This document shows, in pieces, positions 2,229-7,641 of a DNA stretch of 7,762 bases. This stretch comes from a virus. Lineage: Duplodnaviria; Heunggongvirae; Uroviricota; Caudoviricetes. The position numbers were made by a program, and so were the translations under genes. Numbering within the stretch: the stretch's first letter is position 1; each line of letters opens with the position of its first letter. Where the stretch lies: the IMG/VR virus record IMGVR_UViG_3300011952_000013; one strand, written 5' to 3'. The notes beneath the pieces were generated by a model. The model ran no database searches. It had not been told where the DNA came from and saw only the letters and a program-made list of their open reading frames with translations.

Positions 2229-2819
2229 ATGAAGGGGCTTGAGAATGCCATCCGCAATCTGAACAGCCTTGATACCCGTATGGTGCCACAGGCCAGCGCA
2301 TGGGCGATAAACCGTGTGGCACAGAAAGCGGTCTCGGTTGCCACCCGGCAGGTTGCCGGGAATACCGTTGCGGGAGATAACCAGGTGAAAGGGATCCCCC
2401 TGAAACTGGTACGTCAGCGTGTCCGGGTGTTTAAAGCCAGTCCGTCAGGAAAAATGACGGCCAGGATCCGCGTTAACCGGGGCAATCTGCCCGCCATCAA
2501 ACTGAACACAACACGGCGGCGTGCTGGTGAAGGACTGAGAGTGGGAAAATACTTTTTCCGGGGGGCATTTGTTCAGCAACTGGCGAATGGCCGCTGGCAT
2601 GTTCTGAGGCGTCTTCCTGAAGCGCGTTTTGCAACAGGGCATGACCATCAGGGCAGGCCAAGAAAAAATCGTCTTCCTGTGGAGGTAGTGAAAATCCCGC
2701 TGTCCGGACCGCTGACACAGGCATTTGAAGATGCCCGCGACCACATCATTGCTGCGGAAATGCCGAAACAGCTGGGGTATGCACTGAAACAACAACTGAG
2801 GTTATGGCTGACCCGATGA
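2229..2819 (+). CDS. Z: Minor tail / tail completion protein, lambda gpZ-like (196 aa).
   Basis: RBS AAGAGGTG at 2217-2224, then ATG at 2229. Size matches lambda Z (~192 aa) and the N-terminus MKGLENAIRNLNSL is Z-like. Its stop overlaps the U start (ATGA at 2816-2819). Synteny FII-Z-U-V. Confidence 0.75.
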   Translation: MKGLENAIRNLNSLDTRMVPQASAWAINRVAQKAVSVATRQVAGNTVAGDNQVKGIPLKLVRQRVRVFKASPSGKMTARIRVNRGNLPAIKLNTTRRRAGEGLRVGKYFFRGAFVQQLANGRWHVLRRLPEARFATGHDHQGRPRKNRLPVEVVKIPLSGPLTQAFEDARDHIIAAEMPKQLGYALKQQLRLWLTR

Positions 2820-3219
2820 ACCGACATACACAAATCCGCCAGGTCGTACTGGCACGCCTTCGGGAACAGTGTGGAGACAGCGCCACGTTTTTTGACGGGC
2901 TTCCGGCATTTATTGATGCGCANNNNNNNNNNCTGCCGTGGCGGTGTGGCTGAGTGATGCTCAGTACACCGGAAAAATGACGGATGAAGATGACTGGCAG
3001 GCTGTTCTGCATATTGCCGTCTTCATCCGGGCACAGGCACCGGATTCAGAGCTGGATATGTGGATGGAGAGCACCATTTTCCCGGCCCTGAATGATGTAC
3101 CGGCACTTTCCGGACTCATCGACACCCTGAACCCACTCGGTTTTAACTATCAACGTGATAATGAGATGGCCACCTGGGCGATGGCGGAAATCACGTACCA
3201 GATCACGTACACGAATTAA
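2816..3219 (+). CDS. U: Tail terminator protein, lambda gpU-like. The reading frame is interrupted by a 10-N run (2923-2932), across which the frame appears to change (frame 2 before, frame 1 after).
   Basis: ATG at 2816 gives MNRHTQIRQVVLARLREQCGDSATFFDGLPAFIDA. After the N-run, frame 1 gives AVWLSDAQYTGKMTDEDDWQAVLHIAVFIRAQAPDSELDMWMESTIFPALNDVPALSGLIDTLNPLGFNYQRDNEMATWAMAEITYQITYTN. Both halves are collinear with remembered lambda gpU (ATFFDGRP..., AVAVYLTGAEYTG..., ELHIEVF...PDSELDAWMES...). Stop TAA at 3217-3219. Confidence 0.8.
2923..2932. other. Run of 10 N (assembly gap or masked bases) inside the gpU-like gene.
   Basis: Literal n characters in the sequence. Confidence 1.
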
Positions 3220-3229
3220 GGAGGTGGTA

Positions 3230-3973
3230 ATGACCACACCAAATCCACTGGCAAAGACGAAAGGTGCGGGGACGACGTTCTGGATGTATACCGGCAACGG
3301 CGATGCGTTTGCGAACCCTTTGTCGGACACTGACTGGCTGCGTCTTGCGATGGTGAAGGATCTGCAACCTGGCGAAATGACCGCTGATGCAGAAGATGAC
3401 ACTTATCTCGATGATGAAGATGCAGACTGGAAAACGACAACCCAGGGGCAGAAATCCGTTGGTGATACTTCGGCGACGCTGGCCTGGCGTCCGGGTGACA
3501 GCGGGCAGAAAAAACTGGTTCAGTTGTTCGACTCCGGTGAAGTCTGCGCGTTTCGTATCAAATATCCCAACGGCACTGTTGATGTTTTCCGTGGCTGGCT
3601 GAGCTCACTGGGTAAAACCATTGCCTCAAAAGACGTGATGACCCGCACTGTGAAAATCAGCGGTGTGGGGCGTCCGTATCTGGCAGAGGAAGGCACTGAA
3701 ACCGTGAGCGTTACCGGGCTGACAGTATCACCGGCGTCTGCCAGTGTAAAAGTGGGAGCAACCACCACGCTGACCTTTACAGTAAAACCTGACGGAGCCA
3801 GTGACAAAGCGATCAGTGTGCATTCGTCAGATCCACAGACTGCCACGGTTACCCTGAACGGACTTGTGGCCACGGTAAAAGGCGTGAAGCAGGGCAGTGT
3901 CAGCATTGTGGGCATGACCGCTGACGGGAATTTTGTGGCTGTGGCTGCGGTGACTGTCAGCGCCGCAGGTTAA
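3230..3973 (+). CDS. V: Major tail tube protein, lambda gpV-like (247 aa), with a C-terminal Ig-like (Big_2-type) domain.
   Basis: Strong RBS AGGAGG (3219-3224) 5 nt upstream of ATG 3230; the ORF-track start at 3155 has no RBS and overlaps U. The translation MTTPNPLAKTKGAGTTFWMYTGNGDAFANPLSD...YLDDEDADW...NGTVDVFRGW is closely collinear with remembered lambda gpV. The C-terminal ~90 aa are T/V/S/A-rich in a beta-sandwich-like pattern typical of Big_2 domains. Confidence 0.93.
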   Translation: MTTPNPLAKTKGAGTTFWMYTGNGDAFANPLSDTDWLRLAMVKDLQPGEMTADAEDDTYLDDEDADWKTTTQGQKSVGDTSATLAWRPGDSGQKKLVQLFDSGEVCAFRIKYPNGTVDVFRGWLSSLGKTIASKDVMTRTVKISGVGRPYLAEEGTETVSVTGLTVSPASASVKVGATTTLTFTVKPDGASDKAISVHSSDPQTATVTLNGLVATVKGVKQGSVSIVGMTADGNFVAVAAVTVSAAG

Positions 3974-3993: not shown

Positions 3994-4017
3994 GCCCCGG
4001 TTATCCGGGGCTTTTTT
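3994..4017 (+). terminator. Rho-independent terminator-like hairpin between the major tail gene and the chaperone gene.
   Basis: GCCCCGG (3994-4000), TTAT loop, CCGGGGC (4005-4011), then TTTTTT (4012-4017). Begins 21 nt after the V stop codon. Confidence 0.7.
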
Positions 4018-4033
4018 GCAGGTGGAGAACATG

Positions 4034-4420
4034 ATGTTTCTGAAACAGGGCACGTTTAATTATGAAAAACAGTCCGTGGTGCTCAGTGAGCTGTCCGGGC
4101 TGCAGAGAATTGAATATCTGGCGTTTGTTCAGCAGCGAACGGCAAAGTTTGATGCCGGTGAGGGAGAACTGCCGGAGGCTGAACGACAGATTGCTTTTCT
4201 GCGGATGGGGATGGATATCAATGCCTGGCTGGTTTCCCGCTCACTGTGGAATGCGGATCAGTCTAAGGATGTAGAGACGCTTTGCGCATCCGTTATTACA
4301 ACATGGTCGTATGATGCCCTGGGTGCGGGGGCGGAGATGGTTCTGTCGCTGAGCGGTATGGGGGCCATTGATAATGCCGGGGGTGATGAGCATGAGTCGC
4401 TGACGCCGGAAAAGTCCTGA
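4034..4420 (+). CDS. G: Tail assembly chaperone, lambda gpG-like (128 aa if started at 4034; ATG at 4031 is an alternative).
   Basis: GGTGGAG (4021-4027) precedes ATG 4031/4034. The product from 4034, MFLKQGTFNYEKQSVVLSELSGLQRIEYLAF, is collinear with remembered lambda gpG (MFLK...TLSELSALQRIEHLA). The ORF-track start at 3992 lies inside the terminator stem. Stop TGA at 4418-4420. Confidence 0.85.
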   Translation: MFLKQGTFNYEKQSVVLSELSGLQRIEYLAFVQQRTAKFDAGEGELPEAERQIAFLRMGMDINAWLVSRSLWNADQSKDVETLCASVITTWSYDALGAGAEMVLSLSGMGAIDNAGGDEHESLTPEKS

Positions 4421-4710
4421 CGCGGGAAATGCAGTTTGTCATGCGGCTTGCCCGGGAGTTCCGACGGGCAGACTGGCGGCGGATGCTGTCGGAAATGTCG
4501 GCCACTGAGCTTGGTGAGTGGGGCGATTATTTCCGGATGCAGAGCTTCAGTGATGTGTGGATGGATGCGCAGTTTGCCTCGCTGAAGGCATTGATCGTGA
4601 GAATGGTGTCCGGCAGCAGTGATGCTGCGGTGGCTGATTTCAGCCTTTTACCGGAAGAGAACGGGATACCGGAGCGAACGGACGANNNNNNNNNNCGGAC
4701 GAAGAACTGA
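4396..4710 (+). CDS. T: gpT-like segment of the tail assembly chaperone, in the -1 frame relative to G. Probably expressed only as a G-T fusion by programmed -1 ribosomal frameshifting near 4408-4414. Contains a 10-N run (4686-4695), so the 3' end is uncertain.
   Basis: Frame 1 is open from 4396 (upstream in-frame TGA at 4393-4395) and overlaps the last 7 codons of G. An A-rich slippery-like heptamer G_GAA_AAG sits at 4408-4414. Position between G and the tape measure gene matches the conserved G/GT arrangement of lambda-like tail operons. The ATG at 4429 has no convincing RBS. Confidence 0.65.
   Translation, partial: VADAGKVLTREMQFVMRLAREFRRADWRRMLSEMSATELGEWGDYFRMQSFSDVWMDAQFASLKALIVRMVSGSSDAAVADFSLLPEENGIPERTDXXXXRTKN
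4686..4695. other. Run of 10 N near the 3' end of the gpT-like frame, flanked on both sides by the heptamer CGGACGA.
   Basis: Literal n characters; sequence reads aaCGGACGA-N10-CGGACGAag. Confidence 1.
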
Positions 4711-4746
4711 TGCATCTTGGGGAAGGGATTTCCGGAGGCGGGCGTT

Positions 4747-7641
4747 ATGGACCAGATAGCCAACCTGGTCATTGATTTGGGGATTGATGCGGCAGAGTTT
4801 AAAAATGAAATCCCCCGTATCAAAAACCTTCTGAATGGTGCAGCCAGCGATGCAGAACGGTCTTCTGCCCGTATGCAGCGTTTTATGGAGCGTCAGACTC
4901 AGGCCGCCCGGCAGACAACGCAGGCGGCGTCTTCGGCTGCAACAGCCGCATCCGTCCATGCGCAGACAGTGGAGAAGAACGCACAGGCTCATGAACGCAT
5001 GGCCCGCGAGGTGGAGAAAACCCGCCAGCGCATGGAGGCGCTGAGCCAGAAAATGCGCGAGGAACAGGCGCAGGCCATGGCTCTGGCGGAGGCTCAGGAT
5101 AAAGCGGCTGCTGCGTTTTATCGTCAGATTGACAGTGTGAAACAGGCCAGTGCGGGGCTGCAGGAATTACAGCGTATTCAGCAGCAGATCCGACAGGCCA
5201 GAAACAGTGGCGGGATTGGTCAGCAGGATTATCTGGCGCTGATTTCTGAGGTTACGGCGAAAACCCGTGTTCTTACACAGGCTGAGGAAGAGGCTACCCG
5301 ACAGAAAGTGGCGTTTATCCGTCAGCTTAAAGAGCAGGCAACCCGCCAGAATCTTTCTTCTTCTGAGTTGCTTCGTGCTAAGGCTGCCCAGCTGGGGGTA
5401 AGCAGTGCTGCAGAAGTGTATATCCNNNNNNNNNNACCGAAAGGCAGGATGCTTGGCGGGGTTATTGGCGGTATTGCCGCGGCTGTCTATGGTCTGGGTA
5501 AAGCCTGGTATGACGGTCAGAAGGAGGGGGAAGAATTTAACCGCCAGCTGTCGCTGACGGGGCATTATGCCGGAGTCACTGCCGGGCAGCTGTGGACGCT
5601 CAGTCGTGCTATTTCCGGGAATGGTATCACGCAACATGCTGCAGCCGGTGCGCTGGCTCAGGTGGTGGGTAGTGGTGCATTTCGTGGAAACGATATCGGT
5701 ATGGTGGCGAGAGCTGCCGCACAGATGGAGCGATCGGTTGGCCAGTCGATCAGCGATACCATAAATCAGTTTAAGCGGCTGAAGGATGATCCTGTAAATG
5801 CCGCGAAGGCTCTGGACAATGAGCTGCATTTTCTTACTGCCACTCAGCTTGAGCAGATACGTGTCCTTGGGGATCAGGGACGGTCCAGTGATGCTGCACG
5901 GATAGCCATGTCTGCACTGGCAGAGGAAACCGGTCGGCGTACTGCGGATATTGATAATAACCTCAATGCGCTTGGTAGTACGCTGAAGTATCTGTCTGAT
6001 TTGTGGAGTCGTTTCTGGGATGCGGCCATGAATATTGGTCGTGAAGACTCGCTGGATGAACAAATTGCCGCTTTACAGGAGAAAGTGTCGCGGGCGAAAA
6101 GACTCCCCTGGACGGCATCATCTTCTCAGGTTGAATACGATCAGCAGCGTCTTAACGATCTTCAGGAGAAAAAACGCCAGAAGGATTTGCAGGATGCAAA
6201 AGAGCAGGCAGAGCGGAATTATCAGGAGCAACAGAAACGCCGTAATGCTGAAAATGCTGCACTGAACCGGATGAATGAAACTGAAGCAGCACGGCATCAG
6301 CGTGAAATTGCGCGTATTAATGCCATGCAGTACGCCGATCAGGCTGTCAGGGATGCGGCGATACAACGTGAAAATGAACGTTACGAGAAAGCCCTGGCAT
6401 CCGGTAAGAAAAAAACACGCGAAACCCGTAATGATGAGGCCACCCGCTTATTGCTGCAGTACAGTCAGCAACAGGCACAGGTGGAAGGGCAGATTGCTGC
6501 TGCAAGACAGTCAGCAGGCATTGCCACTGACAGGATGACAGAAGCGCATAAACAGCTTCTGGCTCTGCAGCAGCGCATCAGCGACCTGGACGGGAAAAAA
6601 CTGACGGCAGATGAAAAGAGTGTGCTTGCCCGTAAAGATGAACTGATTCAGGCATTGACGCTGCTGGATGTAAAACAGCAGGAGCTTCAGAAACAGACGG
6701 CACTCAACGAGCTGAAGAAAAAAACAATTCAGCTGACCAGTCAACTGGCTGAAGAAGAGCGCGCTCAGCGTCAGCAACATGACCTGGATATCGCCACGGT
6801 GGGTATGGGTGATCAGCAGCGGCAGCGATATCAGGTACAACTGAGTCTTCGCCAGAAATACCAGCAACAGCTGGAGCAGTTGAGGCGGGATAGTGAGCAG
6901 AAAGGGACATATAACACGGATGACTACAGAAAGGCCGAGCAGGCGCTGACGGAGAGCCTGAACCGACAACTGAGTGAGAATCGCCGTTACTGGCAACAGC
7001 TTGAAATTGCTCAGGGTGACTGGAAAAACGGAGTCCTGCGTGCACTCCAGAATGTCACTGAGAATGCGGATAACACAGCCGGGACAGTGGAACAGTTGTT
7101 CACGTCTGCGTTCAGTAGCATGAGTGACTGGCTGGCGACATTCTGTACTACAGGCAAACTCAATTTCAAATCCTTCACCTCTTCTGTGCTGTCAGATATG
7201 TCCAGAATCATGGCTCAGATAGCTTTAATGAAAGCGGTAAAAGGCATTGCTTCCGCGCTGCCTTTTGATTTTGTAGCTAATGCTGATGGCGGTGTTTATC
7301 AGTCGGCTGATTTGAGTCGCTACAGTGGCACGGTGGTTAACCGTCCGACGTTTTTTGCTTTTGCAAAAGGCGCGGGTGTGATGGGGGAAGCTGGGCCTGA
7401 AGCCATTCTGCCACTGCGTCGTGGTGCTGACGGTAAGCTGGGGGTTGTGGCGGATATTGGTGGTTCAGGTATGGCGATGTTTGCCCCGCAGTACAACATC
7501 GAGATCAATAACGATGGCACGAACGGGCAGATAGGTCCGGCTGCCCTGAAGGTGGTTTATGACCTTGGGAAAAAAGCGGCAGCGGACTTTATGCAACAGC
7601 AGGCCCGTGATGGTGGTCGGTTAAGTGGAGCATATCGGTAA
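4747..7641 (+). CDS. H: Tail length tape measure protein, lambda gpH-like (964 aa), with a 10-N run at 5427-5436 inside the gene.
   Basis: GGAGG (4733-4737) precedes ATG 4747; the ORF-track start at 4717 is a TTG with no RBS. The N-terminus MDQIANLVIDLGIDAAEF resembles lambda H (MAEPVGDLVVDLSLDAARF). There is a long Q/E/R/A-rich coiled-coil-like central region. The C-terminus NNDGTNGQIGPAALKVVYD...DGG matches the conserved lambda H C-terminus. Stop overlaps the gpM start (TAATG). Confidence 0.93.
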   Translation: MDQIANLVIDLGIDAAEFKNEIPRIKNLLNGAASDAERSSARMQRFMERQTQAARQTTQAASSAATAASVHAQTVEKNAQAHERMAREVEKTRQRMEALSQKMREEQAQAMALAEAQDKAAAAFYRQIDSVKQASAGLQELQRIQQQIRQARNSGGIGQQDYLALISEVTAKTRVLTQAEEEATRQKVAFIRQLKEQATRQNLSSSELLRAKAAQLGVSSAAEVYIXXXXPKGRMLGGVIGGIAAAVYGLGKAWYDGQKEGEEFNRQLSLTGHYAGVTAGQLWTLSRAISGNGITQHAAAGALAQVVGSGAFRGNDIGMVARAAAQMERSVGQSISDTINQFKRLKDDPVNAAKALDNELHFLTATQLEQIRVLGDQGRSSDAARIAMSALAEETGRRTADIDNNLNALGSTLKYLSDLWSRFWDAAMNIGREDSLDEQIAALQEKVSRAKRLPWTASSSQVEYDQQRLNDLQEKKRQKDLQDAKEQAERNYQEQQKRRNAENAALNRMNETEAARHQREIARINAMQYADQAVRDAAIQRENERYEKALASGKKKTRETRNDEATRLLLQYSQQQAQVEGQIAAARQSAGIATDRMTEAHKQLLALQQRISDLDGKKLTADEKSVLARKDELIQALTLLDVKQQELQKQTALNELKKKTIQLTSQLAEEERAQRQQHDLDIATVGMGDQQRQRYQVQLSLRQKYQQQLEQLRRDSEQKGTYNTDDYRKAEQALTESLNRQLSENRRYWQQLEIAQGDWKNGVLRALQNVTENADNTAGTVEQLFTSAFSSMSDWLATFCTTGKLNFKSFTSSVLSDMSRIMAQIALMKAVKGIASALPFDFVANADGGVYQSADLSRYSGTVVNRPTFFAFAKGAGVMGEAGPEAILPLRRGADGKLGVVADIGGSGMAMFAPQYNIEINNDGTNGQIGPAALKVVYDLGKKAAADFMQQQARDGGRLSGAYR
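5427..5436. other. Run of 10 N inside the tape measure gene; the reading frame is preserved across it.
   Basis: Literal n characters; homology to lambda H is on the same frame on both sides. Confidence 1.

Follow-up and report, generated by a model that had tools for sequence, protein, structure and literature searches.

The apparent frameshift in the gpU-like gene is very probably an assembly artefact, in which a placeholder of fixed length (10 N) hides 8 real bases; this reading draws on comparison with relatives and on parsimony. The gene lies in the window, the whole 7,762-nt stretch of DNA analysed here, and encodes a tail terminator of the Phage_tail_U family (2816..3219, plus strand), which occupies 404 positions as given and 402 nt, that is, 133 codons and a stop, when the N-run is filled with the 8 nt of its relatives. 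It is therefore almost certainly an intact and ordinary 133-codon tail terminator gene.

The window, its relatives and the frame change in the gpU-like gene

The window is best read as a scaffolded draft of the head and tail module of a lambda-like E. coli prophage, with the gene order capsid fusion, cement protein, FII-like protein, Z, U, V, G, T and H. U follows the tail completion gene, precedes the major tail gene and lies upstream of G/T/H; the gpZ-like gene occupies 2229..2819 on the plus strand (PF06763, E 2.5e-57), and the gpV-like major tail tube gene, which carries a C-terminal Big_2 Ig-like domain (PF02368), occupies 3230..3973 on the same strand (PF16461, E 1.2e-66). Three N-runs are present in the window, each of exactly 10 N: the first within the gpU-like gene (2923-2932), the second within gene T (4686-4695), and the third within the tape measure gene (5426-5435).

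By megablast, the module was detected in about one-third of 5,426 complete E. coli genomes, at a median of 2 and up to 6 matching places per module-bearing genome. E. coli chromosomes reach 99.9% identity to the window, and the closest two, WP2-W18-ESBL-08 and CFSAN061763, differ from it by 8 and 10 substitutions, respectively, over all 7,732 determined bases. Collinearity of these chromosomes with the window is broken at the three N-runs only, whose places are taken by 8, -7 and 172 nt. The three sites together give (8-10) + (-7-10) + (172-10) = 143, which is the difference between the 7,905 nt covered by the top records and the 7,762 nt of the window. Repair of the three gaps leaves every one of the eight complete genes (cement protein, FII-like, Z, U, V, G, T and H) open and at full length, with 4 amino-acid differences in total from the closest relative. 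The same module occurs at 97 to 99% identity in the isolated phages HannyBb, PhiR55_1, Tritos, cdtI, mEp460 and Ayreon, the annotated tail terminator included, and therefore this U allele is functional in nature.

In frame 2, the gpU-like ORF begins with the ATG at 2816, which forms an ATGA overlap with the gpZ stop, and upstream of the Ns the ORF encodes MNRHTQIRQVVLARLREQCGDSATFFDGLPAFIDA. The N-run itself is flanked by ...GATGCGCA upstream and CTGCCGTGG... downstream. With the Ns counted literally, the program-listed ORF that contains this upstream frame (2804..2953) ends at a TGA at 2951-2953 on the plus strand, a spurious in-frame stop that would not be met if the N-run were 2 nt shorter. 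The homology to gpU resumes in frame 1, in the listed ORF 2938..3219, as (P)AVAVWLSDAQYTG...ITYTN followed by a stop codon at 3217-3219. The N-terminal 35 amino acids alone match positions 1-33 of the PF06141 profile (E 7.8e-9, 36.3 bits), and the C-terminal 94 amino acids alone match positions 39-130 (E 7.5e-44, 149.6 bits), which leaves about 5 profile positions for the gap between the two halves. The passage from frame 2 to frame 1 and the premature TGA, both pointed out in the preliminary description, were thus found as described, and the frame change is a direct property of the given sequence rather than a chance pattern. Because both halves match PF06141, one in frame 2 and the other in frame 1, continuity of the gene needs a gap length of 2 mod 3. 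The disruption depends solely on the number of Ns, and no determined base supports a frameshift.

The masked segment in relatives and the repaired protein

In the closest relatives, the place of the 10 N at 2923-2932 is taken by the 8-nt segment GGAACTGC. It completes codon Q36 with its third base, contains the whole of E37 and L38, and ends with the first base of codon P39. We scanned GTDB species representatives and IMG/VR with a variable-gap pattern that required exact flanks and allowed a spacing of 0 to 20 nt, and this 8-nt segment was found in 126 of 126 loci (124 from the two scans, together with two relatives fetched earlier). Over all loci with matching flanks, the fill is invariant (130/130). 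The alignment to intact homologues that had been proposed for counting the missing codons hence gives 8 nt at every locus, and, as 8 = 2 mod 3, the gap length class deduced beforehand was borne out. In addition, a 128-nt probe centred on the junction matched at least 99% identical sequence in 1,668 complete E. coli records; among the matches listed, every full-length one spans 128 nt and so has no indel, and the matches sit under a CDS annotated as "phage minor tail U family protein". The U ORF is uninterrupted in 130 of 130 relatives, and also in the window once bases 2923-2932, which are given as N, are replaced by this segment. Very probably, the placeholder exceeds the hidden GGAACTGC by 2 nt, and gpU for this reason appears to jump from frame 2 to frame 1.

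A programmed ribosomal frameshift, or some other recoding inside gpU, would also let one gene pass through two frames, and it was considered because the G/T pair close by does have a true programmed -1 shift; in U, nothing speaks for it beyond the apparent frame change itself. All relatives encode U as one continuous ORF, so that a two-frame architecture is not conserved, lambda gpU is a single 131-aa product, and the change of frame coincides exactly with the undetermined bases. We regard the chance of recoding in gpU as vanishingly small.

With 8 nt inserted, gpU becomes an uninterrupted 133-aa protein that is 100% identical to WP_001079412.1 ("phage minor tail U family protein", present in, for example, CFSAN061763, NRG 857C and WP2-W18-ESBL-08). 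The two agree at every determined codon, and the window differs only in having 10 N in place of the 8 nt. The repaired protein covers positions 1-130 of the 130 in PF06141 (E 6.3e-61; 204.8 bits against a cut-off of 25) and matches the lambda gpU entries (PDB 1Z1Z, 3FZ2 and 3FZB, as well as the virion entries 8IYD/8K37) at E values of about 1e-41; for 1Z1Z the value is 1.5e-41, with 53% identity over 129 residues. The alignment is gapless across the masked region (FFDGLPAFIDAQELPAVAVWL in the repaired protein versus FFDGRPAVFDEADFPAVAVYL in lambda gpU), and its lone gap, of one residue, falls near position 17, far from the N-run. Since 8 nt leave no indel relative to lambda gpU, they already reproduce the lambda spacing. 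The preliminary description had quoted the lambda motif FDEADFPAVAVYL correctly, but its prediction of an 11-nt gap was wrong by one codon and would add a residue; the error arose because FIDA had been aligned with FDEA, one residue out of register.

The likeness to lambda extends beyond the alignment. Both proteins belong to the same length class (133 aa here and 131 aa in lambda), the gene order Z-U-V-G-T-H is the same, and the stop of Z and the start of U overlap as ATGA in both (lambda Z 7977-8555, U 8552-8947). The window gene represents a different allele, typical of cdtI-, mEp460- and HannyBb-like lambdoid phages. The gap codons Q36-E37-L38-P39 align with A34-D35-F36-P37 of lambda gpU at the C-terminal end of the O-loop, which thus ends in QELP in the repaired protein and in ADFP in lambda; nothing functional distinguishes the window gene. 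In the cryo-EM structure of the lambda virion, gpU forms a hexameric ring in which the O-loop (residues 25-37) contacts gpFII and the E-loop contacts gpV (PMC10721106). By analogy, the gpU of the window would cap the head-proximal end of the gpV tube as a hexameric ring once the length set by the tape measure is reached, this ring would stop further addition of gpV, and its O-loop would offer a docking surface to the ring of the gpFII-like joining protein on the filled head.

The other N-runs and the placeholder explanation

The remaining two N-runs are of the same nominal length and stand for quite different distances. At N-run 2 (4686-4695), the heptamer CGGACGA is present on both sides of the Ns and as a single copy in the relatives. 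The two contig ends therefore overlap, by 7 nt, which corresponds to a true gap of -7 nt and makes the literal length of the run impossible. The junction is contiguous and free of duplication in 101 of 101 relatives, and an exact pattern search of IMG/VR found no sequence with the duplicated flanks. Gene T (4429 to about 4775) acquires a false frameshift here: its reading moves from frame 1 into frame 3, and a spurious stop appears at 4708-4710. N-run 3 (5426-5435) corresponds to 172 nt in all of the relatives compared (71/71). It leaves the tape measure gene in frame only because 172 = 10 mod 3, and the protein as given therefore looks intact, yet it is 54 residues short at this point. The true start of the gene is ATG 4747; the listed TTG start at 4717 differs from the start annotated in relatives. 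For both sites, IMG/VR contained no sequence with the flanks exactly 10 nt apart.

Three runs of identical length that correspond to real distances of 8, -7 and 172 nt imply that "10 N" is a nominal placeholder and not a length. Where the gap estimate is small or negative, several short-read assemblers write no fewer than 10 N. The contigs of the window were very probably joined by 10-N placeholders of fixed size, which say nothing about the real distance, and we prefer this single explanation, fixed-length placeholders at scaffold joins, because it covers all three sites. The window resembles draft assemblies that mark scaffold gaps of unknown or negative size with such placeholders in its equal run lengths, in flanks that are collinear with finished genomes and in substitutions clustered at the run edges. 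The use of fixed N counts as gap symbols by assemblers, and the treatment of runs of at least 10 N as scaffold breaks, have been described (PMC5411770, PMC10091225).

The preliminary description had weighed an N-run of wrong length against a frameshifted and inactivated tail terminator. The former is strongly supported by the 8 nt in all relatives and by the behaviour of the other two runs, and the latter received no positive support. A genuine frameshift would mean that about 10 nt are really present, 2 nt more than in the relatives, and that gpU is truncated after about 45 codons, leaving no joinable tails. The given sequence does read in this way with the Ns counted literally, and defective U alleles occur naturally in related prophages, so that decay of U in a prophage is not implausible in general. 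However, this reading takes the number of Ns at its face value, which is demonstrably wrong for the other two runs. Taken literally, the Ns need three independent rare lesions, each lying exactly beneath a 10-nt mask: U would have a +2 change, T would carry a tandem duplication of 17 nt, and H would have lost 162 nt. These lesions are absent from the 130, 101 and 71 relatives, respectively, and from IMG/VR. The neighbouring genes are all intact, and no accompanying decay is found in the module after gap repair. A real lesion in gpU is accordingly very unlikely.

The substitutions of the window provide further information on the contig ends. Eight of them (401, 4383, 4397, 4727, 4739, 4741, 5447 and 6447) are private to the window, being absent from 128 related loci. 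Four of them are found no more than 46 nt from the edge of an N-run (binomial p of about 1.4e-4); three of these four are T-to-G changes, and all are in a G-rich context. Half of the eight private substitutions alter an amino acid (D117G and A122S in G, V99G in T and M288R in H). A 40-mer carrying three of the private alleles had no match in viral or metagenome contigs, and the unique gpG variant of the window had none by exact-protein look-up. Their clustering at N-run edges fits contig ends of low quality and supports the placeholder reading; the private substitutions are probably consensus errors at contig ends of low coverage.

These results are of use only as a caution on data quality, in that 10-N runs in draft scaffolds are symbols and not lengths, and automated annotation across them will call false frameshifts, pseudogenes and split genes. 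In the window, such runs distort gpU and gene T and conceal a 172-nt part of the tape measure gene. The results add no new biology; gpU is an ordinary, already known and widely distributed lambda-type tail terminator gene.

Defective U alleles, partial module copies and further features

A decayed prophage remnant in E. coli MB06101 (L134:3112-6598), found also in B4103-1, has an N-terminally deleted U and retains only a stretch of the module that begins in the 3' part of U and ends 795 nt into the tape measure gene (L001 4697-7294). Its end points fall within gap 1 (L001 4695-4702) and within gap 3 (L001 7179-7350). The contig breaks of the window may go back to a second partial copy of this kind in the source genome. 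Taken further, the scaffold could be collapsed or chimeric: the contigs would have broken at the boundaries of a repeat formed by a second partial module copy, and the two halves of U might come from different loci. The coincidence of the remnant's homology end points with gaps 1 and 3 and the multiple matching places in module-bearing genomes (median 2, up to 6) agree with such an origin. Against it, the junction of the remnant occurs in only 2 of the 5,426 complete genomes, the window carries the L001 allele and not that of the remnant at 19 of the 19 positions at which they differ, and the coincidence of end points was noticed post hoc. We give a chimeric origin a very slight chance, and even if it were true, the gpU frameshift would still be an artefact.

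We also considered the bolder proposal that either the prophage is freshly inactivated, with a real frameshift in gpU, or the breaks at 2923 and about 5426 are recurrent sites of illegitimate recombination shared with the MB06101/B4103-1 remnant. It is highly improbable, though we would grant it a slight chance. The fixed-length placeholder remains the preferred reading of all three sites.

Another defective form of U was encountered in Logan contigs (L129:9884-10282, L130 and L131), which represent a lineage of the same prophage and in which CAG is changed to TAG at codon 9 of gpU, corresponding to 2840-2842 of the window. This amber codon is a real defective or suppressor-dependent allele and is unrelated to the N-run. 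Because of it, the 93-aa C-terminal fragment of U is listed as a gene of its own, which is the case in 36 blocks of the collection. The Logan contigs with this fragment were examined as a possible frameshift case and rejected, as their lesion is the amber at codon 9 and the normal 8-nt segment is present.

Several other features of the module were observed. The 91-aa FII-like protein (1942-2217) belongs to the Gifsy-2/head-tail attachment family (PF13856, E 1.8e-17, with a weak match to PF05354) and bears the RefSeq name "DNA breaking-rejoining protein"; this name seems to have been inherited and to be misleading for what would be a head-tail joining protein. Between V and G, a strong terminator-like hairpin, GCCCCGG-TTAT-CCGGGGC (3994-4011), is followed by a T-run (TTTTTT) to 4017, and it could attenuate the expression of G, T and H relative to V. 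Finally, the G/T region shows the geometry of a programmed -1 frameshift of the conserved kind at 4396-4429: gene G, in frame 2, has its stop codon at 4418-4420, frame 1, which is that of T, runs open from 4396 onwards, and the candidate slip site, G-GAA-AAG at 4408-4414, is one base off the G-GGA-AAG of lambda.
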